DNA of 64,000 bases from Candidatus Obscuribacteraceae bacterium (GCA_044229845.1 JBGASG010000009.1:96001-160000); one strand, 5' to 3'. Positions 37,271-50,821 are shown, counted from the stretch's first letter. Numbers and translations: made by a program. The notes: generated by a model not told the origin, from the sequence alone.

Positions 37271-38566
37271 CTACTGGTTGCCACTAAAATTGGTGCCCTC
37301 CGGAGGATGCGGAGGCGGTCCTTGCATACCATCTGGTGGTGGTGGCATATTGCCACCGGGACCACTTGCACCACGGGGCGGACCACCACCGGGCGGACCA
37401 AATCCGCCACCACCGGGTGGACCAAATCCGCCACCACCGGGTGGACCAAATCCGCCACCACCGGGCGGACCGAATCCGCCACCACCGGGCGGACCGAATC
37501 CGCCACCACCGGGCGGACCGAATCCGCCACCGCCGGGCGGACCGAATCCGCCACCGCCGGGCGGACCGAATCCACCCATACCACCGGGTCCACCAGGTCG
37601 CAGGACACCGCGTCCTCGTTTCTCGAAGCTGGTGTCCGGAGTACCCTTGAAACCGCGCGGCACATAAGGATAAGCGGTGGTGATTACGTAATAGTAGGTT
37701 CCTTTCGGATACTCAGCGGTCACCCCGATTCGCCCGTTGCAATCATCGAGATCGCCCAACCCCGCCACGTACTCATAATCTTCAACAAACAATCCATTGA
37801 ACGAGCCGCCCGGGCCACCATTTCTAGTGCCCTTACGGACGCGATAGCTGGGCTTCAACTCCCTCATTTTGGAAGTCGGATCCTTGGCATTGGTGTTGCC
37901 GTAGGGCGCGTAAATCGGATAGCCGTCCGCCGCATACCCGAGCAATACGGGGCGCGGCATGCGCGCCAGATGTTTCAGCAATCCACTGGGTAAGCCATGA
38001 TAGTGGTAGGCCCCATTTGGTTGTACGTGGGCATTGTTTTCGTCCAATCCCAGTCGTGCACCAAGCGCCATTGCTTCGTATTGCCAACCTGAAAATGGAT
38101 TACCCTGCCACCACTCTGCAGCACCAGGATCAAATGGAACTCCATTCAACGCCACGCCAAACAGATTCATACGCAAAGGAGTTGTCGCCGTCGCGAATTG
38201 CGGATTAGCCGGCATGTGAAAACTGTAGTTCTGTTCGCTAATCGTGTTCGGGTTTCCTGGATTTGGAAATGCACCGGTGATGTGATTGGGTATGCCGTTG
38301 GACGTGATAATGCGCAGGTTGCCCTGCACTGACATGTGGACGTTCGGGCTGGCAGCATATGCAGGCGACATGACCCAATCGAGCATCTTGTTCAGATTGA
38401 ACGCATCGCTTTCGTTGCCTGCTTTTTTGTGTTGATGTTTGTGTTTGTGTTTCGACGGTATCGTGGTGCTGTCTTCAACATCGTAATGGGCCTGCGCCGC
38501 CGGCATACCCGCCAACGCAGCCGTCGTTAATCCTGCGACTACAACTATCAAACGGTTCCATTTCAT
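37271..38566 (-). CDS. Secreted YHYH-domain protein with Gly/Pro repeat tail
   Basis: SNGIPNH, GVALNGVPF, NAHVQPNGAYHYH, ADGYPIY, DLDDCNGR. Confidence 0.92.
   Translation of the reverse strand: MKWNRLIVVVAGLTTAALAGMPAAQAHYDVEDSTTIPSKHKHKHQHKKAGNESDAFNLNKMLDWVMSPAYAASPNVHMSVQGNLRIITSNGIPNHITGAFPNPGNPNTISEQNYSFHMPANPQFATATTPLRMNLFGVALNGVPFDPGAAEWWQGNPFSGWQYEAMALGARLGLDENNAHVQPNGAYHYHGLPSGLLKHLARMPRPVLLGYAADGYPIYAPYGNTNAKDPTSKMRELKPSYRVRKGTRNGGPGGSFNGLFVEDYEYVAGLGDLDDCNGRIGVTAEYPKGTYYYVITTAYPYVPRGFKGTPDTSFEKRGRGVLRPGGPGGMGGFGPPGGGGFGPPGGGGFGPPGGGGFGPPGGGGFGPPGGGGFGPPGGGGFGPPGGGGFGPPGGGPPRGASGPGGNMPPPPDGMQGPPPHPPEGTNFSGNQ
37383..37574. repeat. 8 x 24-bp coding tandem repeat (GGFGPPGG)
   Basis: Unit CCACC[A/G]CCGGG[C/T]GGACC[A/G]AATCCG; copies counted directly. 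Confidence 0.95.
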
Positions 38567-38602
38567 CGGTACATGATATCCGATTCTCCAGCGCAATCTT
38601 TG

Positions 38603-39328
38603 CTATTGCGGACCCTCCGTAAGCGAGAGGCGATATTTCGCGTCCAGCGGCTGGTCCGAGAAACGATGAATGTAGCCCGATCCACCCAGACGCGGCGGTC
38701 TGATGCTGGTTTTGTAGTACTTGGCTGCAGATTCCGGCCGCCCCATTGCCTCATAGGCTGCTCCCAGGTAATAGTCGGGTGCGCCGTAGTAATTGGCTGG
38801 CAGTTCTCCCGGCAATGCCGGTGCAAACACGAGCTGTTTGCAGGTCGCCAGATCGCTCAGCGCCGAAGTTGGTCGATCCATTTCCAACAGCAGCTTCCCG
38901 CGTGCCAGATGCGCGTCGCCCGAAAGCGGATTGAGCTGAATCGCGCGATCAAAATCTTGCCGCGCTTTTTCGAAGTTTTTCTGATCCATGTAGCAAATGC
39001 CTCGCTCGGTATAGGCGGCGGCGTATGACGGATCGGTTTCGATCAGTTTCGATAGATCGGCGATAGCACTTGTGGTGCAACCGATCGTGCCGTAGAGATA
39101 ACCGCGTAGATACAAGGCGCGTTTGTGATGGGGAGTGGATTTCAGAATAGCGTTAGTCGATGTGAATACGCTGATCAGCTGGTTTCCAACTTCAGTCTTT
39201 TTCGCAGTTTCTGCCCATGAATTCATGGTCGCTATGTCGGTCGCCGTCTGCTGCGCCTTTGCACCAGTCGTGACTGCAACTAATAAAGCAACGCCGCATA
39301 CTGTTGATCTAAATGTAGTGCTCCTCAT
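38603..39328 (-). CDS. Secreted TPR protein
   Basis: Signal peptide; AYTERGICY..FDRAIQLNP TPR repeats. Confidence 0.85.
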   Translation of the reverse strand: MRSTTFRSTVCGVALLVAVTTGAKAQQTATDIATMNSWAETAKKTEVGNQLISVFTSTNAILKSTPHHKRALYLRGYLYGTIGCTTSAIADLSKLIETDPSYAAAYTERGICYMDQKNFEKARQDFDRAIQLNPLSGDAHLARGKLLLEMDRPTSALSDLATCKQLVFAPALPGELPANYYGAPDYYLGAAYEAMGRPESAAKYYKTSIRPPRLGGSGYIHRFSDQPLDAKYRLSLTEGPQ

Positions 39329-39453: not shown

Positions 39454-42348
39454 ATGGCTCGTCAGGTCTTTATGAACTCTGCAATCCGACGTTTTCGTCC
39501 CACCAAACTGAGCGGGCTGTTTTTGCTGGCGATGCTGGCAGCGCCGGCTGCAGTTGCCGCTCCGCCTGGCTTCGACCAGCACATGCAAAACGCGCTCCAG
39601 GCGATTGCCAAAAAGGACGCCGCCCTGGCTGACAAAGAAGTGGAGGCTGCCGAAAAGGCGCTGGGTCCGACCAAGCCGGCAGACGAGTATTCCCAGCTCT
39701 TGCTGCAACGCGGATTAATTCGTGTAGCCTCTGGTCGACCAAAGGAAGCGGTCCCTTTCTATACGCAGTCTATAAACACCCTCATAAAGGCATTTGGACC
39801 AAAGAGCAGCAAGCTGGGAATTCCGTACGCCATGAGAGGGCTTGCCTACTGCGACAGCGACGGTTACAAGGAAGCCGCCGAAGACCTGGCCAGCTCGTTT
39901 GCCCTGATGCAGCCAGACAAGAGCAACCAGGCGCCGATATATCTGCGCGAGCTGGCAAGTCGGGTGACCCCAATCAGAATAAAACTTGGTGGCGGTCCAT
40001 TAATCATGCCGATGCTGGTCAATGGCATCGCCGCCATGGACCGCTGCGGATTGGGAACCGCCCGAGAAACTGGTTCTCTGATCACGATGCTGGGTGATAC
40101 TTACAAAGCTGAAGGGAAAATCCAGGAGGCTGAAGCGAAGTTTCGCAAAGCGATTGAAATTTTTGCCGCTGCCAAGGCAGACGACGACGAATTAAGTCTG
40201 CGACTGGCCCTTGCCGCCCTCTACGAGGATCAGGGGCGATTCGCCGATGCGGACGAACAGATCAAACCAGCGCTGGCGATTGCTGATCGTGTGTTTGGAG
40301 CTAAAAGCACTCAAGCAGCCAAGGTGCTCGAGCGCCAGGGCATTTTATATTGCAGCTGGGGCAAAGTAACCGAGGGCGAAGCGAAACTAAAGAAAGCACT
40401 GGTGGTGCTTGAAAAAGATCCTAACAACCCTGAGCAGATGTTCTGTTGGATGGGACTGAGCTCGGCCGCGCAGTCTCGCGGCGACCTGGCTGAAGCGGAA
40501 AATGCCATGAAGCAGGCGTTCGCCTTTGCAGAGAAATCGACCAACATTCTTCCTGAAGATGCAAGCACTGTCGATAACGCCATGGCCGATGTGCTGATAG
40601 CGCGCAATAAGTATGTTGAGGCCGAGGCGGTGCTCAACAAGTCGCTGCAAACGGCGCAGAAGGTAGCCGCCGAGAGCCCGCTGGTGGCAGATGCCTATGC
40701 GTCGCTCGCCAAATTGAATTTGTCGCAGGGCAAATACAAGGAAGCCGAAGACTACATCATGAAAGCCCTGATTATGCGGCGCAATCTTTTTGGCGACATC
40801 AATCGTCTGGTGGCGCGAGACTTGCGTCGCGGGGCTTTGATCTATGACGATCAGAAACTGTTTACCAAATCAGCCCCCTGTTATGACCTGTCGCTGCAGA
40901 TTCTCAACAAAGTCGCGCCCGAAAATGATTTCGATAAAATCAGACTCTTAGAATGCTGGGGGCTGAGCGAAAACGCGCAAGCCAAATATTCCGACGCCGA
41001 GAAACGCATGCTGCAAGCCGCTGCAATGGCGGAGGTCGTGTTCGGCAAAGACTCTCGCGAATCGCTTTCTTATGTAGAGCTACTGGGAAAGAACGACTTT
41101 GACGCTGGTAAGTATGAGCAGGCAGAAACTCGCCTGCTGCAAGTGCTGACGAAACTGGAAAAACTTGACGGACCTACTTCTCCGTCGCTGGGCAGCGTGC
41201 TCACTCACCTGTTGCACACCTACAACGAAATGGGCAACGCCACCATGGCGCAGGAGATACAGGCGCGCCTCGACAAGATCAAGGGCGCCCTGCCTGGTGC
41301 ACCGCCGGCGGTGGTGAAAGCCAATCCGGTCATTACTGATGTGGCCGAGATGCCAAAATCCGGCAAGCCTGTGGCAAACAAGTGGGCTGTCGTGATTGGT
41401 ATCAGCAACTTCCGCGACTCCTCAATCAACCTGAAGTATGGAGCAAAAGATGCGAAAGACTTCGCCAATTTTCTGGTCGCTGAGCAAAACTTCAAACCTG
41501 AGAACGTCAAACTGCTGATTGACGAGAATGCCAATCGCATGAACATCGCCGATGCCCTTGGCGAAGGCTTTCTGGTCCGAAACGCGCGGGAAGACGACCT
41601 GGTAGTGATTTTCGTTTCCAGCCATGGTGGCGCCGATATCACCAAGTCGTCAGGAAGAAACTTTTTGTGCTCCTATGAATCAAACGCGCAAAATCTTCTT
41701 ATGACCGGCATCACGATGGAATGGTTCTCCCAGTATCTGACCGACCGCGTTCCGGCTCAGCGCGTGGTTGTCTTCCTTGATGTCTGTCACAGCGGCGCGA
41801 TCACCGGCGACAAAGGATTGACTCGCGAGCAGCAGAGCTTCGATGTTTTGAGCAGTGCACCGGGGCGCGGACAGATCTTTATCGCCTCCAGTTTGTCCAG
41901 CCAGCTTTCGTGGGAGTCGAAGCGCTACGAAAATGGCGTGTTCACGCATTCACTAATGGATGCCCTGCGCGCCAACGGGCGGCAGACAAAGTTGAGCGAA
42001 GCTTTCGACCGGTTGCGTAAGCAAGTCGAAGACGAGGTCCTCTCCGACCGCCAACAAATGCAAACGCCGCTCATGAAGCGAACCTGGAACGGCGATGACC
42101 TACGCCTTTCCGAAGCCTCCGGTACGATGCTCGTCAACACGGGGGCGGCGTCACCATCGGCCCAGCCAGTCATCCCCACGGCCATGCCGGCGTCCAATAC
42201 CGCCGCACCTGTGCCCAATGCCAATCTAATTTTTCAACCCTCCGCGTCCTCTCAGCCAACGGCTGTCCAGGCTCCGGTGCGCCGATTGCCAGCCCGGGCG
42301 CCCGTTCTTAAGGTGCCGCCGGTGCCCGGCAGCCAGGACGATTTCTAA
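39454..42348 (+). CDS. Secreted TPR + caspase-like (peptidase C14) protein
   Basis: Many TPR repeats; KWAVVIGIS, SSHG, LDVCHSG His/Cys dyad, NGVFT, QTP. Confidence 0.88.
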   Translation: MARQVFMNSAIRRFRPTKLSGLFLLAMLAAPAAVAAPPGFDQHMQNALQAIAKKDAALADKEVEAAEKALGPTKPADEYSQLLLQRGLIRVASGRPKEAVPFYTQSINTLIKAFGPKSSKLGIPYAMRGLAYCDSDGYKEAAEDLASSFALMQPDKSNQAPIYLRELASRVTPIRIKLGGGPLIMPMLVNGIAAMDRCGLGTARETGSLITMLGDTYKAEGKIQEAEAKFRKAIEIFAAAKADDDELSLRLALAALYEDQGRFADADEQIKPALAIADRVFGAKSTQAAKVLERQGILYCSWGKVTEGEAKLKKALVVLEKDPNNPEQMFCWMGLSSAAQSRGDLAEAENAMKQAFAFAEKSTNILPEDASTVDNAMADVLIARNKYVEAEAVLNKSLQTAQKVAAESPLVADAYASLAKLNLSQGKYKEAEDYIMKALIMRRNLFGDINRLVARDLRRGALIYDDQKLFTKSAPCYDLSLQILNKVAPENDFDKIRLLECWGLSENAQAKYSDAEKRMLQAAAMAEVVFGKDSRESLSYVELLGKNDFDAGKYEQAETRLLQVLTKLEKLDGPTSPSLGSVLTHLLHTYNEMGNATMAQEIQARLDKIKGALPGAPPAVVKANPVITDVAEMPKSGKPVANKWAVVIGISNFRDSSINLKYGAKDAKDFANFLVAEQNFKPENVKLLIDENANRMNIADALGEGFLVRNAREDDLVVIFVSSHGGADITKSSGRNFLCSYESNAQNLLMTGITMEWFSQYLTDRVPAQRVVVFLDVCHSGAITGDKGLTREQQSFDVLSSAPGRGQIFIASSLSSQLSWESKRYENGVFTHSLMDALRANGRQTKLSEAFDRLRKQVEDEVLSDRQQMQTPLMKRTWNGDDLRLSEASGTMLVNTGAASPSAQPVIPTAMPASNTAAPVPNANLIFQPSASSQPTAVQAPVRRLPARAPVLKVPPVPGSQDDF

Positions 42349-42369
42349 ATTTAAAGCGTCTCCCAAGTT

Positions 42370-42413
42370 TCTCCACATTTTTCATCGTCGCTCCACCAGC
42401 TCTCCCTAGGATG
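42370..42413 (+). promoter_or_regulatory. Putative response-regulator box plus -10 element
   Basis: TCTCCACATTT ... CTCCAC ... CCTAGGATG upstream of the PqqD-like gene. Confidence 0.65.
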
Positions 42414-42453: not shown

Positions 42454-42726
42454 ATGCAGCAAAAAGTAAATGACGTGCTGAGCAGAATAAACGTCGGCGA
42501 GCGGCTGTCCAAGCTGGCTGTCAGTTCGACGGGCTTCGTTTTCGACCCGCAAACCGGACAGAGTTTCACACTGAACCACAGCGGTCTCACCGCCCTTGAT
42601 GCTTTGAAGCGCACCGCGTCCACCGAGTATGCGGCTCGAGCGTTAGCCGATACCTACAAGATTCCGCTGGAGATAGCCGAGACCAGTCTCGACGCGTTTC
42701 TGGTGCAACTGGGGAGATATCTTTAA
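42454..42726 (+). CDS. PqqD family / RRE-fold peptide-binding protein
   Basis: 90 aa; GFVFDPQTGQSFTLNHSG strands followed by three helices ending LDAFLVQL; AGGAG RBS. Confidence 0.85.
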   Translation: MQQKVNDVLSRINVGERLSKLAVSSTGFVFDPQTGQSFTLNHSGLTALDALKRTASTEYAARALADTYKIPLEIAETSLDAFLVQLGRYL

Positions 42727-43845
42727 ATGACGACGACAATCAATATTAATCGCACGTGGAAGCATTTCAATGTAGCCATAACCGGAGTCAATGCCAGAGC
42801 CGACAGTCCCGGTCCGGGGTGCGCAGTTGCCCGCTGTATCAGAGAGCACCGCGCGTTTCGCGGGAGAGTGATCGGTCTGGGCTATGATGTACTCGATGCC
42901 GGACTGTACGCCAGAGATCTCTGCCACGCAGGCTATCTGGTGCCTTACCCCTCCGCCGGGCAGGAAGCATTACTCGAGCGCATCAAAGACATACATGCGC
43001 GCGAGGGTCTCGATGTAATCATTCCCTGTCTGGATGCCGAAATCCAGAACTTCATCGGCATCAGACCGGAACTTACCCGCATGGGCATCCAAATGCTGAT
43101 TCCCAGCCGCGATCAATTTATGCTGCGCGCCAAGGATCATCTTGATGCCTTCTGCAAATCGATCGGAGTGCTCGCTCCCGAGAGTCGCACACTAACAGAT
43201 CCGCAATTCTTCGACACCTGTGAGAGCGATGGATGGCAATATCCCTTGATCATCAAAGGCATCTTTTATGATGCAACGGTGGCATACAGCGCCGTTGACG
43301 CCAAGGCGATCTTCCACCGCATGGTTCATTCCTGGGGCTATCCGGTGCTGGTGCAGAAGATCATTCCCGGCGATGAATTTGACCTGGCTGGCATAGGGGA
43401 TGGTAACGGTGCGCTGATCGGCGCAGTAACGATGCGCAAGCGCGCCCTTACTGAAAAAGGAAAGGCGTGGGCGGGGGTAACTGTTGTAGACGAGGCGATT
43501 GCGGAGGTGGCGGAAAAACTGGTTCGCGCTCTCAGTTGGCGCGGACCGCTGGAAGTAGAAGTGATGAAAGGAGAAGACGGAAAGATATATTTGATAGAGA
43601 TAAATCCGCGTTTTCCTGCCTGGATCTATTTAAGTCATGCTGCTGGAAGAAACCTGCCGGTGGCGCTGCTCAAAGTTCTATCCGGCGACGAAAATCTCGA
43701 ATTGGCAAAACCGAACACCGGCACATTTTTCATCCGCTACGCACAGGAAATTATTGTGCAGCTGCCGGAATTTGAATCGATGTTTGTCGATGGTTTTTCT
43801 GCGCCCGAAAATGACGCGCTGACGGCGACAACCCGATCTGCGTAA
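42727..43845 (+). CDS. ATP-grasp carboxylate-amine ligase (CPSase-like)
   Basis: IIPCLDAE, YPLIIKG, LVQKII, GPLEVE, LIEINPRF; abuts the PqqD stop codon. Confidence 0.9.
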   Translation: MTTTININRTWKHFNVAITGVNARADSPGPGCAVARCIREHRAFRGRVIGLGYDVLDAGLYARDLCHAGYLVPYPSAGQEALLERIKDIHAREGLDVIIPCLDAEIQNFIGIRPELTRMGIQMLIPSRDQFMLRAKDHLDAFCKSIGVLAPESRTLTDPQFFDTCESDGWQYPLIIKGIFYDATVAYSAVDAKAIFHRMVHSWGYPVLVQKIIPGDEFDLAGIGDGNGALIGAVTMRKRALTEKGKAWAGVTVVDEAIAEVAEKLVRALSWRGPLEVEVMKGEDGKIYLIEINPRFPAWIYLSHAAGRNLPVALLKVLSGDENLELAKPNTGTFFIRYAQEIIVQLPEFESMFVDGFSAPENDALTATTRSA

Positions 43846-43907
43846 GCGCTCGGATCGAACACGCGAAAAACATCAGCTGATCGCGTGCCTGCGTTGGGGA
43901 GGATTGT

Positions 43908-45362
43908 ATGAGTATCGAACCTGTTACCACCACTTGGGAACCGCCGTATATTCAGCCGCACCGCATCGGTGCCGCCAATAAGTTCGGCAACCGCACCGTG
44001 AGAGATGACGTGACGCACAATGTATTTGGACTGCCGATCAATGATTTGATCGAGCGTTTTGGCTCGCCGCTGTTCGTCACTTCAGAACACCAGTTGCGGG
44101 CAAATGTGCGCCGCATCACGCGAGCTTTCGAACGTCGATACAGCCCGGTTGTGCACGGCTGGTCCTACAAGACCAACTATATCAGTGCCATCTGCAACAT
44201 CCTGCATCAGGAGGGCTCGTGGGCCGAGGTGGTCTCGGCTTTCGAGTATGAAAAAGCGAGAGCTCTGGGTATGCCTGGACATCGCATTATTTTCAACGGA
44301 CCAAATAAGGGGCGAGCGATCTTAGAACGTGCCATCGCCGAAGGTGCGCACATTCACATAGATCACATGGACGAGCTAAAACTGATCGAAGCCATCGCCG
44401 AAGAGCAGGATCGCATCGTGCAGGTGGCGCTGAGGCTGAATTTCGATACCGGTTATACGGAGCCGTGGAGCCGCTTTGGCTTTAACGTCGAAAATGGACA
44501 GGCCCATCAGGCCGCTAAGATGATCGCGCTCAGTCCGCATCTGCGACTCAACGGATTGCACAGCCATATCGGCACCTTCGTCCGCGAACCGCGAGCATAC
44601 GCCGAGCAAGTGAGGGTGATGTGCGCGTTCATGCGCGAACTGGAAACCTCGCAGCACATAACTATCGAAAATATCGATATTGGCGGCGGGCTGCCCTCGC
44701 GCAATGCCTTGCAAGGAGTCTATCTTCCTCCCGAACAGGCTATCCCCGACCTCAATGAATACGCCGATGCCATTTGCGATGCACTCGTCGAACGCACCGC
44801 ATATCGCAAAGAATTGAACAAGCCATTGCCGCGTTTGATTTTTGAAAGCGGACGGGCCGTAGTTGATGATGCGCAAGTTTTGATTGCGACAGTCGCCGGC
44901 ACGAAACGACTGCCTGACGGCCGTCGCGCCGCCATACTGAATGCCGGCACCAACTTGATGTTCACCGCCTACTGGTACAACCATCAGATCAAGATAACTC
45001 GCGAACCGACAGGCAGCTACGAAGATACAGTGCTCTACGGACCGTTGTGTATGAATATCGATGTGGTGCGCCACAGCGTCTACCTGCCGCCGCTGAACGC
45101 CGGCGATCACCTGGTAATCAGTCCGGTCGGTGCCTACAACAATACGCAGTGGTTGCAATTCATCGAGTATCGACCAAATGTGGTGCTGGTCCAGGAGGGC
45201 GGTGAGTGTTCCGTCATTCGTCGCGCCGAAAATCTGGAATCGATGATGTCCCACGACGAACTGCCTGAGCGGCTGCGCGACCCATTCGCCAACCTGAGCA
45301 CCAGTGACATGCAGCAGATGCGCACGTGCTCCGACTTGCGCGGCGCCAGAGAAAGAATTTAG
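43908..45362 (+). CDS. Fold-type-III PLP enzyme (diaminopimelate decarboxylase-like)
   Basis: GSPLFV, SYKTN (PLP lysine), FNGP, LHSHIG, DIGGG, ESGR, GPLCMNID, GAY. Confidence 0.9.
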   Translation: MSIEPVTTTWEPPYIQPHRIGAANKFGNRTVRDDVTHNVFGLPINDLIERFGSPLFVTSEHQLRANVRRITRAFERRYSPVVHGWSYKTNYISAICNILHQEGSWAEVVSAFEYEKARALGMPGHRIIFNGPNKGRAILERAIAEGAHIHIDHMDELKLIEAIAEEQDRIVQVALRLNFDTGYTEPWSRFGFNVENGQAHQAAKMIALSPHLRLNGLHSHIGTFVREPRAYAEQVRVMCAFMRELETSQHITIENIDIGGGLPSRNALQGVYLPPEQAIPDLNEYADAICDALVERTAYRKELNKPLPRLIFESGRAVVDDAQVLIATVAGTKRLPDGRRAAILNAGTNLMFTAYWYNHQIKITREPTGSYEDTVLYGPLCMNIDVVRHSVYLPPLNAGDHLVISPVGAYNNTQWLQFIEYRPNVVLVQEGGECSVIRRAENLESMMSHDELPERLRDPFANLSTSDMQQMRTCSDLRGARERI

Positions 45363-45378
45363 TTGCGAGGTCGATGAT

Positions 45379-47526
45379 ATGTTAAACCGGTTACTCGAAG
45401 GGTATGGTTCGTTTTTTGCACTCAACCATCCCGCCTCAAAATTTTTGATCTTCATTGCCGCTATGCTGCAGCCGCTCTCTGGGCTATTCGGTCTGGTCGG
45501 AGGCTTGAGTGTGATACTGGCCCGCAAGCTGCTCAACTTCCAATCCGAGACAGAACGAATTGAGACTGTCAACGGCATTCTTCTGGGCATGTTGATTGGT
45601 TCACTGTACGCGCCTGACTATCGCACCGTGCTTCTCACCATGTGTGGTGGCGCCCTGGTGGTTTTGACCAGCGCCATTCTGACCGAAACCCTGGCCCGCC
45701 AGTATCGGCTGCCATTGCTAGGACTTCCCTATGGGCTCGCCGCATACATTCTCTTGCCGGTGGCCGCTAACCTGCGACTCGATCCAGCCATGCCGGCATA
45801 CACATACTCTCTGCCCATGCTGCCGATTCAGGCCTTTCTCTGGCTGTATCCCATGGGCGCTATGTATTTCAACGGCACCACAATCGGGGGACTCCTGGTG
45901 CTCACCGCATTCGCTATATCTTCTCGGTATCTTGCCATCATCGCCGTCGGCAGTTCGATTCTCTGCTGCGCGTTCCTTGAGATATTGGCCGTGCCGTCCA
46001 ATACGACACTATTTATGGTGGCACAAATGAACGGTGTCCTCAGCGCTTGCATTATCGGTGGGCTGTGTGCAACGCCCGGCAAACGCAGCCTGCTGGTAGC
46101 AGTATCAGCAGCTGCGTGCGCCTGTGTCCTTTCTTTGTGCCTGTCGCGGTTGCTCTGGGTTTTCGGGCTGCCGGTATTGGCGCTGCCGTTTGTGATTTCA
46201 ACCTACGCCTGTATGCTTTCGCTCAACCCCGGTCGTGGGAAAGCGTGGACTTATTTCTGGTTGCCCGCGCCGGCGCTGCCTGAACGCAGCATGGAGCAGA
46301 TAGAAACGGCCAAGGCTCGCGGTGTCGATGTGCGGAGCATAGCTCTGAAACCGCCGTTCGACGGTGAGTGGCAAATCTACCAGGGCTTCGGCGGCAAACA
46401 CACGCACACCGGCAACTGGCAGTATGCCCTCGATTTCTTTCAGACTCAGGAAGAACGCAGCTTCTGGACAGATGGACGCCTGCTTTGCGATTACTATGCA
46501 TTCGGCAAACCGGTACTGGCACCAGCGTATGGCACCGTCATCGATTGCCGCAACGACTTACCTGATAATCCACCAGGCGAGGTCGATGCCGTCAACAACT
46601 GGGGCAACTTCATCTTGATTCAGTTGGATTTTGGTCCATGTGTACTGCTCGCTCACCTGCAGAAAAGTTCTCTCAAAGTAGCACCGTACGCCCGCGTACA
46701 TCCCGGACAGGTAATTGCATCGGTCGGCAACTCCGGCCGGTCGCCGCAGCCCCACTTGCATGTGCATGTGCAGGAGACGGCAATTATTGGAAGCAAAACA
46801 CTGCCATTTCATCTGACGTCGGTGACGACCGTTGCCAGTGACGCACCAACCGACACGCGAAATACATTCAGTTTGCGTGCTTGCCCTAAAGAAGGCGATA
46901 CGATTGCAACGCCGCGCCGGAATCCCGCAATTAAGCGTGCTTTGCGACTGATCGTCGGAACCCAGTTTCAATTTGAAGTGGCGCAGGCAAACGCCCCGAC
47001 CGCCGTGTCGCGCCTCGAGGTCAAGCTGGACATCTATGGACAGTTCTGGCTCGAGAGCGCGACAGGCGCCAGGGTGGCTTTTGTTTGCAACGATGATTTC
47101 GTTGCCTTTTACAACCGTACTGGTCCCAAAGACATGCTTCTGGACGCATTGATCCTCAATATCGGATTGACTCCTTTTTGCGAAGGCGGTCTGGAGTGGA
47201 CCGATGTGGCATCGCGGCGCTTACTGCCCATGAATAGTTTCACCCGACTGGCACACGCCCTCTGGCATCCTTTGAAAGCCTGCGCTCTGGGCAAATTTCA
47301 ACGCACTTGGGATCCTCTGACGCAGCTCTGGCATCAAACCTGCGAATACAGTTTAGGAGGCGACAAGTGGCGCACTCATGCGAAACTATGCGAGGCGAAC
47401 GGACTCGTTTGCGTCTCGCTGTTCAAAAAGGGAGCACCGTTGCTTACAGCAAGATTGATCGGTTACGGCATTCGCGAAGACTATGGAATTCCGGAGCAGC
47501 AAACATCTCTGTTGGCAGCCGTCTGA
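45379..47526 (+). CDS. Urea-transporter-like membrane domain fused to M23 metallopeptidase
   Basis: About 10 TM segments with NG..LP..LP[YF] repeats; HTGNWQYALDF, WGNFI, LAHL, GNSGRSPQPHLH. Confidence 0.85.
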   Translation: MLNRLLEGYGSFFALNHPASKFLIFIAAMLQPLSGLFGLVGGLSVILARKLLNFQSETERIETVNGILLGMLIGSLYAPDYRTVLLTMCGGALVVLTSAILTETLARQYRLPLLGLPYGLAAYILLPVAANLRLDPAMPAYTYSLPMLPIQAFLWLYPMGAMYFNGTTIGGLLVLTAFAISSRYLAIIAVGSSILCCAFLEILAVPSNTTLFMVAQMNGVLSACIIGGLCATPGKRSLLVAVSAAACACVLSLCLSRLLWVFGLPVLALPFVISTYACMLSLNPGRGKAWTYFWLPAPALPERSMEQIETAKARGVDVRSIALKPPFDGEWQIYQGFGGKHTHTGNWQYALDFFQTQEERSFWTDGRLLCDYYAFGKPVLAPAYGTVIDCRNDLPDNPPGEVDAVNNWGNFILIQLDFGPCVLLAHLQKSSLKVAPYARVHPGQVIASVGNSGRSPQPHLHVHVQETAIIGSKTLPFHLTSVTTVASDAPTDTRNTFSLRACPKEGDTIATPRRNPAIKRALRLIVGTQFQFEVAQANAPTAVSRLEVKLDIYGQFWLESATGARVAFVCNDDFVAFYNRTGPKDMLLDALILNIGLTPFCEGGLEWTDVASRRLLPMNSFTRLAHALWHPLKACALGKFQRTWDPLTQLWHQTCEYSLGGDKWRTHAKLCEANGLVCVSLFKKGAPLLTARLIGYGIREDYGIPEQQTSLLAAV

Positions 47527-47546
47527 GGAGCAATAAAGCTCGATCG

Positions 47547-49079
47547 ATGAAGCTCAATATCGCGCACAAGTTGATGATGATTATGATGCTGACCACCGGA
47601 ATTGTGGTCGGGCTGATCTTCGGATTGACGCGCTTCAGCATCCTCAGCGGCTTCACCAACTATGTTGAGCGCGTTGAACTGTCGACTCTCAGCACCTTTG
47701 CCGGCAATCTTGCCCGCCGGTATGAGCGAGGAGGCAACAGCTGGGATTTTGCACGAAACGACGAGTCGCAAATCTGGTGGATACTGGGCGCCAGCGAGAT
47801 GAGCGATCTGCATCACAATGTTCCGCCACCGCCGGGGGAGCTACCAAACCCTCATCCCCCGCCTGGCAGCGGTCCGCCGCTCGAGGCACCGGGCGGCGGA
47901 CCACCCTTCTTGCAATTTTTGGGTGCGCCGCCGGGCACCAAACCCGGCACCATGCCACCATCGTTTCCTGAACATCGAATGGCTTTCTTTCGCCGCATTG
48001 GTCTTTTCGACCAGAGCGGCAAAATAGTCTGGGGCAACCTGGCCTCCAGAAACAGCAAACAGATGCTGGCCCTGACCGCCGGCGGCAAACAGATCGGGTA
48101 CCTGAAACTGGTGCCTAACGATTTGATGTCTAAAGATATCGAGGGACAGTTCATTGCCGAGCAGAGCCGCAACCTGTTGATCGTCAGCGCCGTGGCGTTT
48201 CTTGCCGCAGTTGGAGCTGCATTTTTGCTCTCTCACGATCTGGTGCGAGCCATAAACACTCTCGTGCAGGGTACCCGCAAACTGTCGACCGGCAATTTCG
48301 AGACCCGCATTTCACTCAATCGCGGCGACGAACTCGGTGAGCTTGCCGAAGACTTCAACAGCCTGGCCAACACGCTGCAGCAGCAGGACACTGCCAAGAA
48401 ACAGTGGATCACCGACACGTCGCATGAACTGCGCACTCCGATCGCTATATTGCGCGCGCAGGTGGAAGCGTTTCAAGATGGTGTGCAACAAGTAAATCCT
48501 CGCACCCTGGAAATATTGCACAGCGAAATCATCACGCTGGGAAAACTGGTTGATGATCTGCATGACCTGGCGCGCTCTGATCTCGGACAGCTGCGTTATG
48601 ATTTCGTGCCGGTCGATGTAGGGGTGGTTTTGCTGGATACGGTGGAAGCTTTCAATGAACGTTTCGCCAGCAAGAAGATCAAGCTGGATGCCAGTGCCGT
48701 CGCCGACTTGCATTGCATCGTGGAAGCGGATAGCACGCGGCTGACACAGGTGTTTTCCAATCTATTGGAGAACTCGCTACGATACACAAATGAAAACGGC
48801 GGTGTTAAGATCTCGTCCATGCAATTGCCGGGCGAGTTGGCTATCTATTTCGACGATTCTGAACCCGGTGTGTCGGCGCAGTCAATCTCACAGATTTTCG
48901 ATCGGTTCTATCGCAGCGAAAGTTCACGCAATCGCAAGCATGGTGGTGCCGGGTTGGGGCTGCCGATCTGCAAAGCTGTCATTGAAGCGCATCATGGTAC
49001 CCTGACCTCGACCCGCTCTCAAATGGGCGGTCTGCGCATCACTATCCGCCTGCCGTTGAAGGAGCTGTCCAAATGGTAG
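47547..49079 (+). CDS. Sensor histidine kinase (BaeS-like, HAMP domain)
   Basis: Two TM segments, DELGELA, SHELRTP, NLLENSLRYT, FDRFYR, GAGLGL. Confidence 0.93.
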   Translation: MKLNIAHKLMMIMMLTTGIVVGLIFGLTRFSILSGFTNYVERVELSTLSTFAGNLARRYERGGNSWDFARNDESQIWWILGASEMSDLHHNVPPPPGELPNPHPPPGSGPPLEAPGGGPPFLQFLGAPPGTKPGTMPPSFPEHRMAFFRRIGLFDQSGKIVWGNLASRNSKQMLALTAGGKQIGYLKLVPNDLMSKDIEGQFIAEQSRNLLIVSAVAFLAAVGAAFLLSHDLVRAINTLVQGTRKLSTGNFETRISLNRGDELGELAEDFNSLANTLQQQDTAKKQWITDTSHELRTPIAILRAQVEAFQDGVQQVNPRTLEILHSEIITLGKLVDDLHDLARSDLGQLRYDFVPVDVGVVLLDTVEAFNERFASKKIKLDASAVADLHCIVEADSTRLTQVFSNLLENSLRYTNENGGVKISSMQLPGELAIYFDDSEPGVSAQSISQIFDRFYRSESSRNRKHGGAGLGLPICKAVIEAHHGTLTSTRSQMGGLRITIRLPLKELSKW

Positions 49080-49780
49080 AAAACGGCGGCAGCAGCTATA
49101 TCTTGATTGTCGAAGACGAGCTGGTGATTGCCGGGATTCTGGCTGATTACTTGAAACAATCAGGTTTCCGCACCAAACATGTGGACAACGGCATCGATGC
49201 CGTCGATGCCGTCAAGAAAGAAGCGCCGGATCTGGTCCTATTAGATGTAATGCTGCCCGGAAAAGACGGACTGGAAGTCTGCCGTGAGATTCGTACTTTC
49301 TCGACTGTGCCTGTGATTATGGTAACCGCCAAAGTTGATGAGATCGACAAACTGCTAGGGCTGGAGCTCGGTGCCGATGATTACATCTGCAAGCCCTTCA
49401 GCCCGCGCGAAGTGGTGGCACGAGTGAAGGCTTCTTTTCGGCGCGCCAAGTACGCAGCCACCACCGACACCGGCAAGCGCCAGCTGATCGAGATAGATGA
49501 GCCGCGCGCGCGAATCACGGTAAGTGGGCACCGGCTCGACCTGACTCCCACAGAATATCGGCTTCTGAAACTGCTCGCCAGCAACCCGGGGAGAGTCTAC
49601 TCTCGCGCACAACTTCTTGATCTTTGCTACCAGCAAGAGCAACAAATATTCGATCGGGTAATCGACAGCCACGTTAAGAACGTGCGGCGCAAGCTGGCAA
49701 AGGTGCTGTCAGGACAGGACGTCATTCATGCTGTGTACGGTGTCGGCTATCGCTTCGAAATCGATAGCGGTCAGTCCTGA
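49073..49780 (+). CDS. OmpR-family response regulator (BaeR-like)
   Basis: VEDE, LDVMLPG, GADDYICKPFSPRE, RVIDSHVKNVRRK, VYGVGYRF. Confidence 0.93.
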   Translation: MVENGGSSYILIVEDELVIAGILADYLKQSGFRTKHVDNGIDAVDAVKKEAPDLVLLDVMLPGKDGLEVCREIRTFSTVPVIMVTAKVDEIDKLLGLELGADDYICKPFSPREVVARVKASFRRAKYAATTDTGKRQLIEIDEPRARITVSGHRLDLTPTEYRLLKLLASNPGRVYSRAQLLDLCYQQEQQIFDRVIDSHVKNVRRKLAKVLSGQDVIHAVYGVGYRFEIDSGQS

Positions 49781-49912: not shown

Positions 49913-50821
49913 ATGAATCTCCGAAAGTCTCTACACGTTACCGCAATCATTCTCTCCTCTGTCATCTTTATAGGCGCGAGTCATGTTGCTGGTGCTGCCG
50001 GCGAGAGTTCAGTTCCCGCTGGAAAAGTAGCCGGCGGTTCCAGTAACAAAATTGCAGCTGACCTGATGCGTCTGAAAACATACAAAGATAGCGAGAAAGT
50101 GATAGCCGACCCGCAGGTCCAAAAGCTTCTGAAAGGCGTGATGGGCACTTCTCTCAATCAACTCCACAATCAGACGCAGGGCTATGAAGAGCCGCAAGTG
50201 ACCGGCAACGAAATGATTTTGCACGGTGGTGTTGCCGGTTTGTACGGACAGATGGAAGCCGTGGTTTCTCTGAATCTGGCGACGAGTGAAACATGTGTAG
50301 CCCTGCTCAACGCCGAAGATCTGACGATTTTCAGCAAAGTGTCTGATCGCACCATGCTTTCGGGTGGCGTTAAGAGTTTCATCAAAGATATGGAGGCGCA
50401 GGGCGCTCGCAAAATAACTTTCTCGAAGCCCACAACTAATCCGATTGCGCTGGAAACCGGCATTATCAAGACGGACAAAAATCTCAATGTCGCGATCGTC
50501 ACCGGCACTTTTCAGCGCCAGGGCACAGAGCGGTGGGCTGATTCGACTCTGAAACTACAGGCACTGCCCGGTGGAAAAATCAAATTCGAGCTGGAATCGG
50601 CTCAGGGAGCGAGAACCGGCGGTGTCAGCGGCACGGCTGCAATCAAGAGCGGAGTGGCAAAGTTTTATACAGATGGCGGTAGCACCATCACACTCAAAAT
50701 TAGTGGTGCCCAGGCCGATGTCTCAATTGACGATAAGGGTGATTATGGCGGCGTGGGCGTGACGCCTGAAGGGCACTATTTGAAGAAGTCGAGTGCCGTG
50801 CCCAAGTTTTCCGCACACTGA
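49913..50821 (+). CDS. Secreted hypothetical protein
   Basis: AGGAG RBS, signal peptide, 302-aa ORF. Confidence 0.7.
   Translation: MNLRKSLHVTAIILSSVIFIGASHVAGAAGESSVPAGKVAGGSSNKIAADLMRLKTYKDSEKVIADPQVQKLLKGVMGTSLNQLHNQTQGYEEPQVTGNEMILHGGVAGLYGQMEAVVSLNLATSETCVALLNAEDLTIFSKVSDRTMLSGGVKSFIKDMEAQGARKITFSKPTTNPIALETGIIKTDKNLNVAIVTGTFQRQGTERWADSTLKLQALPGGKIKFELESAQGARTGGVSGTAAIKSGVAKFYTDGGSTITLKISGAQADVSIDDKGDYGGVGVTPEGHYLKKSSAVPKFSAH

Follow-up and report, generated by a model that had tools for sequence, protein, structure and literature searches.

We analyzed six co-oriented open reading frames (ORFs) at 42454-49780 (+) in a 64,000-nucleotide stretch of a Candidatus Obscuribacteraceae genome (GCA_044229845.1 JBGASG010000009.1:96001-160000; hereafter the window) and conclude that they form a genuine and switchable copy of a bacterial pathway as yet undescribed. 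They encode a RiPP recognition element (RRE; RiPP, a peptide synthesized ribosomally and modified post-translationally), an ATP-grasp amide ligase, a pyridoxal 5'-phosphate (PLP) decarboxylase, a urea-transporter (UT) channel fold fused to an M23 peptidase (UT-M23), and a two-component pair. We tentatively propose that this cassette carries out the ligate-then-decarboxylate chemistry of the butirosin and closthioamide pathways without a carrier protein, working on a lysine in the decarboxylase's own N-terminal tail, and that the M23 domain would release the product into the pore. Beyond the parts listed in a sequence-only reading of the window, we found an operator, a tetratricopeptide repeat (TPR) gene, and the leader-like tail of the decarboxylase.

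The first gene (42454-42726, +) encodes a discrete 90-aa RRE of PqqD fold, above the cut-off for Pfam PqqD (PF05402). It is followed by genes for a 372-aa ligase (42727-43845, +; Pfam ATPgrasp_Ter/ATP-grasp_3, PRK12767/ATPgrasp_Ter-like), a 484-aa alanine-racemase-fold decarboxylase (43908-45362, +; Pfam Orn/DAP/Arg decarboxylase N and C), the 715-aa UT-M23 protein (45379-47526, +; Pfam UT and Peptidase_M23), a 510-aa BaeS-like sensor histidine kinase (47547-49079, +; Pfam HAMP/HisKA/HATPase), and a 235-aa BaeR-like OmpR-family response regulator (49073-49780, +; Pfam Response_reg and Trans_reg_C). The gaps of 0, 62, 16, and 20 nt and a 7-nt overlap, like the coordinates and domain calls, were as the sequence-only reading had given them. 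Its claim of intact catalytic motifs also held up, the catalytic residues of the ligase, the decarboxylase, and the M23 domain being invariant among 54-59 aligned relatives. The GC content of the six-gene stretch equals that of the whole window, and the closest relatives with names come from Candidatus Obscuribacterales/Melainabacteria records. As for expression, nothing but short contigs of related strains came from two RNA runs; these covered parts of the stretch and also sequence outside the operon.

To evaluate conservation, we compared 90 loci, of which 10 came from species genomes and 80 were the best of at least 387 metagenome matches, a sample biased to close relatives. The RRE, ATP-grasp, PLP decarboxylase, and UT-M23 genes stood in this order in all 57 loci where at least 3.3 kb of sequence upstream of UT-M23 left space for the whole set; this exceeds chance, and the gene-neighborhood survey thus bore out the conserved synteny on which the earlier reading depended. 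The decarboxylase gene lay directly 5' of the UT-M23 gene in 77 of 78 loci, with L054 being the exception. Downstream of UT-M23, an outer-membrane barrel gene was found in 54 of 82 loci, usually followed by a TPR gene, a histidine kinase gene in 25, and neither in three. The two-component pair is thus not part of the core. Two loci from elsewhere in the phylum (L111 and L112, in G238 and G357) have the four core genes with no adjoining barrel or TPR gene, and the core is therefore four genes; a different, divergent two-component pair lies near both.

Our proposal turns on a leader-like N-terminal tail of the decarboxylase (43935-43988, +), which reads W10-x-x-P13-x-I15 ... N24-K25-F26-G27. The tail precedes the fold, and FigC and most LysA alignments start after it. 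The motif WxxPx[ILVM]..N(K)xG was present in all 72 loci with an intact N-terminus, with the lysine in 71 of them, and in 10 of 10 further genome loci; the tail also occurs in a deeper Y-tail clade. NKFG was kept in 71 of 72 loci, its spacing from the RRE motif being nearly constant. G21 and G27 are conserved, and the conserved lysines of the decarboxylase and ligase other than K25 lie in folded domains. Among distant representatives, the [WY]xxP core persisted in many top matches, with NKFG varying, and was rare among weaker matches. One 871-aa protein (P0250) holds ATP-grasp and decarboxylase in a single ORF, with YxxP kept and a degenerate NKFG in mid-protein; it may be a true fusion or the result of a lost stop codon. 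Motifs of the form W/Y/LxxP/L/I are the recognition class of the FusE, PqqD, and McjB RREs (PMC12710340, in part), and the word decarboxylase does not occur in the main text of that paper. We regard the tail as a candidate RRE site and carrier lysine, and its leader-like character probably explains the missing precursor.

The absence of a small precursor ORF, first remarked on for the gaps of this operon, extended to the wider set of loci. The [WY]xxPx-hydrophobic motif gave 127 matches among the 20-80-aa ORFs of the 90 loci, none at a fixed place across lineages, and by inspection these ORFs were scattered and mostly off-frame inside genes. No recurrent precursor was thus found in the 90 loci, in a search that did not extend to precursors encoded far away. 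The RRE is the sole clear copy of its subfamily in the genome, and its closest solved relatives are TfuB1 (E 8e-8) and TbiB1 (E 2e-6), both lasso B1 proteins. As in the lasso B1/YxxP leader and PqqD/PqqA systems, a discrete RRE is paired with a W/YxxP-hydrophobic motif, here in the next-but-one gene product. Unlike those systems, the motif is carried by a 484-aa enzyme rather than a short precursor, and the cassette has no lasso cyclase, B2 protease, or radical S-adenosylmethionine enzyme. Thus, of the features that mark an RRE-dependent RiPP cluster, the RRE domain was found and a separate short precursor with leader and core was not. In some loci (L045:4628-5446, L064:531-1322, L081:4680-5498, and L082:462-1259), a TetR-like DNA-binding domain is fused to the RRE, and L082 carries a free RRE as well.

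A structure prediction for the decarboxylase (residues 1-460) with the RRE weakly supports binding between them. The predicted complex scored 0.42 against 0.00 for the best control and passed a mark that 116 of 157 solved complexes also reached, as did 2 of 215 mismatches; those that reached it at 0.60 or under were only 18 of the 157 solved complexes and both mismatches. The runs agreed in at least 57% of contacts, with a partner pLDDT (predicted local distance difference test) of at least 77. The prediction covered only the decarboxylase-RRE pair.

The pocket of the decarboxylase bears on the order of the chemistry. The best PDB match was FigC (7kh2, E 6e-55), from the FigA/FigC (FslA/FslC) rhizoferrin system of Francisella, which was also the best sequence match, and K88, H218, E313, R316, C381, and Y410 were invariant in 54 rows. 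We mapped the PDB-match alignment onto the FigC residues discussed in PMC7857480 (in part). T353, Y357, C381, and M382 match FigC T327, Y331, C354, and M355, whereas W356, I384, Q414, and L416 replace FigC T330, H357, R387, and N389; all of the compared positions except 416 were invariant or nearly so in the 54 rows. The pocket lacks the Arg/Glu pair of LysA, with no acidic residue for a free distal amine and no arginine for the distal carboxylate of diaminopimelate, and it also lacks the citrate-binding H357/R387 of FigC. Such a neutral, FigC-like pocket fits a neutral, amide-linked side chain, and we would expect the alpha-amino acid end of the substrate to be free and its far end to be neutral and probably amide-linked. 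Since a neutral far-end pocket has no acidic residue to bind a free distal amine, ligation would precede decarboxylation, and the order suggested earlier, in which an amine is made and then ligated, is the less likely one.

Two known identities were considered for this enzyme and rejected. The first was the housekeeping LysA, which had been named as a possible undoing of the sequence-only reading. The enzyme scores 220 bits against a TIGR01048 cut-off of 298, the RPA and CES motifs are replaced by FTA and CMN, and a separate, true LysA (424 bits, over the cut-off) is encoded on contig C18. The second was the citrylornithine decarboxylase FigC/FslC, with which the enzyme shares the T327/Y331/M355 pocket features and, in our proposal, the ligate-then-decarboxylate order (PMC7857480, in part). 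However, it scores 223 bits against an NF041039 cut-off of 500, it has I384, Q414, and L416 in place of the FigC residues (and W356 in place of T330), and its partner is an ATP-grasp enzyme rather than an NRPS-independent siderophore (NIS) synthetase. Unlike the rhizoferrin locus, the cassette has no major facilitator superfamily exporter or siderophore receptor among its recurrent neighbors. Elsewhere in the genome (G000:C19:348364-349686, -), a third alanine-racemase-fold decarboxylase-like gene stands before a cysteine-synthase-like one, and the two may belong to a siderophore-type cluster.

The residues K136, K177, E278, E291, N293, and R295 of the ligase were invariant in 54 rows. The AlphaFold2 model (pLDDT 89.9) was closest in fold to 2pn1, an uncharacterized structure (Z 30.7, root-mean-square deviation [rmsd] 2.5, 304 aligned), followed by PylC (Z 24.6, rmsd 3.1, 274 aligned), tied with glycinamide ribonucleotide (GAR) synthetase and an L-amino acid ligase; it was not close to RimK or the graspetide enzymes (Z 14-18). 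The ligase fell below every equivalog cut-off, with PylC as a weak NCBIfam match. Ddl was rejected as its identity, because the ligase reaches 17-24 bits where the Ddl/VanD cut-offs are 243-700 and a separate Ddl is encoded elsewhere in the genome.

By analogy, the best chemical precedent for the cassette comes from closthioamide (CtaD/CtaF/CtaE) and butirosin (BtrJ/BtrK/BtrI) biosynthesis, where an ATP-grasp enzyme likewise stands beside a PLP decarboxylase of the Orn/DAP/Arg family. In the closthioamide pathway these two enzymes iteratively build beta-alanine chains on a carrier (PMC7183216, in part), and butirosin follows the same logic with glutamate (PMC11350588, in part); in both, Asp or Glu is loaded on the carrier by the side-chain carboxyl and then decarboxylated. 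A peptidyl or acyl carrier protein is encoded in 95% of the loci of CtaD homologues (PMC7183216, in part). In contrast, no phosphopantetheinyl carrier recurs here, and the RRE and leader-like enzyme tail stand in its place. Release would be by the channel-fused M23 domain rather than by a papain-like transacylase, and the decarboxylase is only distantly similar to BtrK. Clustering of neighboring ORFs of at least 70 aa in the 90 loci gave no recurrent carrier protein, although the carrier Pfam was not scanned directly, and only the barrel and TPR families recurred across lineages.

The UT-M23 model (pLDDT 93.7) comprises a membrane domain (aa ~1-310), the M23 domain (aa ~320-482), and a C-terminal beta-sheet domain (aa ~520-700). 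Residues 1-310 match the D. vulgaris UT (3k3f; Z 35.6, rmsd 2.3, 297 aligned), and M23 folds were matched over aa ~320-480. The C-terminal domain, searched as part of the whole-protein model, gave middling matches only (vitellogenin/lipovitellin, Z 10-11; barrels, Z 8-9). The M23 zinc ligands and further histidines (H343, D352, H426, H459, and H461) were kept in 59 of 59 rows. Lys and Arg number 8.6 on the membrane side that holds both termini and 1.6 on the opposite side, and the former count was the higher in all 59 rows; judged by this bias, both ends of the protein and its M23 domain face the cytoplasm, from where the peptidase cannot reach the wall. Although the fold is shared with urea channels over about 300 residues, the two constriction threonines of those channels are mostly replaced. 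At the positions that we take to be T130 and T294, mapped through the alignment, we found Ser in 36, Gly in 21, and Thr in 2 of 59 rows, and Ala in 40, Ser in 15, and Thr in 2, respectively. The Asn and Leu/Phe pore positions are largely kept. The UT score was 57 bits against a TIGR03441 cut-off of 275. A link to urease was rejected, as no urease was found in the 88%-complete genome. Unlike in the urea channels, the membrane domain is fused to M23, and no characterized urea-channel fold fused to a cytoplasmic peptidase was found in the literature that we searched. At the constriction, the pore of a true UT measures 2-3 Å (PMC10541013, in part), which by analogy favors a small or thin product.

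With both the peptidase and the tail in the cytoplasm, one unlikely alternative is regulated proteolysis, in which the RRE would deliver the tail to the membrane-bound M23 domain as lasso B1 proteins deliver leaders to the B2 protease. A cut near the conserved glycines would then switch the decarboxylase on or off or release a short, possibly ligase-modified peptide, with the uncut tail being read by the TetR-RRE fusions. Glycine is a common cleavage site of M23 enzymes, and the conservation of G21 and G27 and the fusions in L045, L064, L081, and L082 suit this idea. However, it gives the ligase and the pore no clear role, a 20-residue peptide would be too large for a urea-type pore, and most cassettes have no RRE-fused regulator.

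The peptidase also bears on the loose parallel to van-type wall remodeling drawn in the sequence-only reading, in which an amine would be ligated into peptidoglycan stems and old stems trimmed. Peptidoglycan peptidases make up the M23 family, whose members could in principle encounter precursors in the cytoplasm, and BaeSR-type pairs respond to envelope stress, which we counted in favor of the parallel. Nevertheless, we consider it most improbable. The ligase (at the bit scores given above), kinase, and regulator all fall far below the Van cut-offs, the pair is BaeSR-like, domain content and catalytic Cys mark the PLP enzyme as a decarboxylase, and the M23 domain is cytoplasmic and faces away from the wall. 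No cell-wall gene recurred among the neighbors in the 90 loci, and the RRE and tail would be left unexplained.

Upstream of the operon, we identified an operator (42359-42397, +) made of four direct repeats with an 11-bp period and the consensus TCTCCAYA, which resembles the BaeR consensus as quoted in PMC3799227 (in part). A -10-like element, TAGGAT (42407-42412, +), lies 9 nt after it, and a TAnnAT-type hexamer occurs at similar spacing after the repeats in most two-component-type loci. Scored with a 39-bp model trained on 24 other loci, with the window left out, the operator reached 41.8 bits and was the best site in the 5.16-Mb genome. In leave-one-out scoring, where close kin remain in the training set, 28 of the 31 two-component-type regions scored 19.8 bits or more (L078, L091, and L092 fail), and only 2 of 35 barrel-type upstream regions exceeded 17 bits; shuffled sequences reached a maximum of 9.7. 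L068 was dropped from this survey, L105 was labeled by kinship, and in the loci with TetR-RRE fusions the region tested was not the promoter. A generic promoter and terminator scan missed the operator and returned nothing usable. The response regulator of the operon probably binds this operator, whose tie to the two-component form lends sequence support to the inducibility claimed earlier.

BaeSR is the best family match for both signaling proteins, although each falls below the equivalog cut-off (kinase to BaeS_SmeS, 407 bits against 500; regulator to BaeR, 296 against 380), and the cassette differs from BaeSR systems in its four repeats and the lack of an adjoining efflux pump. L039, one of the two barrel-type loci positive for the operator, has a divergent kinase/regulator pair, and in L016 (position 6380) an extra operator copy lies between the ligase and decarboxylase genes, in a 660-nt gap. 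With a shorter, 22-bp operator model, such scores were matched by other sites in the genome (C8:74744, 22.8 bits). Further 11-bp repeats of the TCTCCACAC type are found at G000:C8:74744, C18:197030, C6:117336, and C1:776149, some of them upstream of large proteins that lack annotation; no clue came from the genes that follow them. Similar repeats may serve other OmpR-type regulators, or the regulon may extend further.

The only other genome site above 16 bits with the 39-bp model is a second operator copy (39419-39381, -; 23.1 bits), followed by TAGGAT at 39371-39366. It precedes a divergently placed TPR gene (38603-39328, -), whose likely start is the ATG at 39328, behind AGGAGG resembling a ribosome-binding site; the 241-aa product has an apparent signal peptide, judged by eye. 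Of the 22 family genomes that have the decarboxylase, 20 also have this TPR family, against none of the 39 that lack it, in a comparison where kin are not independent and at most 42 candidates were scored per genome. G166, one of the two exceptions, has a different cassette clade with the other TPR type. The TPR gene heads the operon in several relatives, and separately transcribed TPR genes keep their own operator in nine other loci. We therefore count the TPR gene, whose product is apparently secreted, as a seventh and probably co-regulated member of the cassette.

Two neighbors of the TPR gene were rejected as members. The YHYH gene (37271-38596, -) occurs both with and without the cassette (in 13 of 22 genomes and 18 of 39, respectively). 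Its product has a long GGGFGPP repeat tail; the gene lies 6 nt after the TPR gene, probably co-transcribed with it here, and adjoins the TPR gene in five loci. A gene for a 964-aa TPR and caspase-like (Peptidase_C14) protein lies between the TPR gene and the operon (39454-42348, +). It is not recurrent beside the cassette and was taken as an insertion, with an operator copy left on each side.

The cassette is patchy in its distribution: within the family 22 of 61 genomes have it, within the class 13 of 151, and within the phylum 4 of 301. In a quick decarboxylase tree of 68 rows, with SH-aLRT (Shimodaira-Hasegawa-like approximate likelihood-ratio test) as the only support measure, the 19 two-component rows were split from the rest by a branch with 98% SH-aLRT and lay nested within the barrel-type rows. 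On this sequence evidence, the sensor-type form is one clade, without the usual outer-membrane barrel. The barrel of the barrel-type loci is YaiO-like, which we treat as a lead only. A barrel alignment query, positive in G235, matched none of the 61 family genomes, and a YaiO search matched one; the barrel was thus not found in those searched, and its absence is not proven. In the source genome (88% complete), the TPR gene is present and no barrel match was found, whereas both are present in barrel-type loci. The TPR protein matched the barrel-type TPR family by HHalign (93%) at 18% identity, a result that generic TPR likeness could give.

Beyond the phylum, the UT-M23 family has a 701-member Atlas cluster, as well as clusters dominated by Pseudomonadota, Myxococcota, and Bacteroidota. 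A plasmid search gave one distant LysA only, and a search of viral contigs gave one short M23 match. Signs of decay or assembly error (a truncated kinase, a stop inside UT-M23, or a split ligase) were seen in L013 (11702-12397), G062 (C27), L098, and L019.

The link between the two-component pair and the operon, together with a sensor-type clade in which the barrel was not found and the product may stay periplasmic, could suggest an agr-like autoinducer circuit, in which the kinase of the operon would sense the exported product through its periplasmic domain. The kinase loop, however, ranges from about 10 to more than 200 aa among relatives and has only about 10-15 residues in L012/L013, L015, L017, L025, and L102. 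This variation is unlike a specific ligand-binding domain and argues against sensing of a specific exported product. In addition, the barrel replaces the downstream kinase in most loci, and we rate such a circuit as very unlikely.

The cassette lacks defining features of RiPP clusters, Btr/Cta systems, NIS siderophore pathways, LysA, van clusters, and true urea channels, and by analogy it would work most like Btr/Cta chemistry with lasso-type recognition. Building on the observed genes, gene order, motifs, operator, co-distribution, and topology bias, we infer each chemical step as follows. The BaeSR-like pair would bind the repeated operator and switch on the operon and the TPR gene. The RRE would grip WxxPxI on the decarboxylase tail, much as lasso B1 proteins grip YxxP leaders, and present K25 to the ATP-grasp enzyme, which would attach Glu or Asp by the side-chain carboxyl. 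The tethered residue would enter the PLP site and lose its alpha-carboxyl there. The 4-aminobutyryl or beta-alanyl unit that remains would have a free amine and, as with BtrJ/K and CtaD/F, may be extended again. At the inner mouth of the channel, where charge bias and fold place it, the M23 domain would cut the amide and free the carrier; the need to cut off a tethered product is the simplest explanation for an invariant, cytoplasmic M23 site. The small product would then pass through the modified urea-type pore to the periplasm and be handled there by the TPR protein, together with the outer-membrane barrel in other lineages.

Several points weigh against modification of the tail lysine. L091, an otherwise intact cassette that keeps the checked catalytic residues, has Ser (AGC) in place of the tail Lys, where its close relative L085 has AAA, and several distant relatives keep [WY]xxP with T, H, P, or nothing at the lysine position (their gene context was not seen). 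The complex prediction returned no contacts, which leaves the tail a candidate RRE site, and the pass itself may stem from likeness to RRE-leader complexes already solved. By sequence, the decarboxylase is much closer to FigC, which acts on a free molecule, than to BtrK (E 3e-21), and the ligase is not a demonstrated relative of BtrJ or CtaD, its nearest folds being those named above. Urea channels are only 2-3 Å wide at the constriction, and a route that yields a single product for each enzyme tail and cycle would be slow.

Some of the same evidence fits a possible, though less probable, alternative. Here the binding of RRE and tail would merely hold the decarboxylase and ligase together, and the product would be a free N-acyl-diamine. 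The ligase would acylate a free amine (for example, an ornithine or lysine side chain, as PylC and FigA do), decarboxylation would follow, the M23 domain would trim or recycle the N-acyl-diamine, and the pore would release it. FigC, the closest decarboxylase, with T353/Y357/M382 shared, acts on a free molecule, N-citrylornithine (PMC7857480, in part). PylC is among the nearest ligase folds and is a weak NCBIfam match, the tail lysine is lost or variable in the cases just described while [WY]xxP persists, and P0250 fuses ligase and decarboxylase with a degenerate NKFG. However, mere tethering leaves both the near-fixed spacing of NKFG in 71 of 72 loci and the invariant endopeptidase site unexplained, and the citrate-binding residues of FigC are absent, so the FigC substrate class is unmatched.

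The carrier-free proposal also has an extended, rather doubtful form, a self-primed polyamide synthase and exporter. Repeated cycles on the RRE-held tail lysine would give a nylon-like chain of 4-aminobutyrate or beta-alanine units, which the M23 domain would cut to length at the mouth of the repurposed channel for export, with the TPR protein (and the YaiO-like barrel in most lineages) carrying the chain outward like an exopolysaccharide. In synthase-dependent polymer secretion, a TPR protein and a barrel adjoin an inner-membrane component; here, the TPR gene was found without a barrel match.

Two further genes in the window lie outside these subjects. Directly after the regulator gene, a 302-aa, probably secreted protein without a Pfam match is encoded at 49913-50821 (+); it was not recurrent beside the cassette in the compared loci. 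A 273-aa protein with a transpeptidase-fold domain (PF00905; 54401-55222, -) presumably resembles a class D beta-lactamase, judging by its motifs. We found no paper on the cassette in the literature searched, where subscription papers or unread supplements could mention it, and the absence of a published assignment thus stood within that literature; PMC7470986 and PMC8939145 (both in part) do not mention the cassette.

RRE domains serve as markers of peptide natural-product clusters, many RREs have no known precursor, and a recognition motif on an enzyme of the same operon offers a testable rule for such orphan RREs. If the polyamide form of our proposal is true, this would be, to our knowledge, the first RRE that reads a leader built into an enzyme serving as its own carrier, and we know of no other urea-channel fold that exports a biosynthetic product. 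The cassette could thus reveal a new way of tethering intermediates without a carrier protein. The operator and the seventh gene provide a reporter for the inducing signal and a full gene set for heterologous expression. The cassette is widespread, and it gives a rare handle on specialized metabolism in the non-photosynthetic Melainabacteria.

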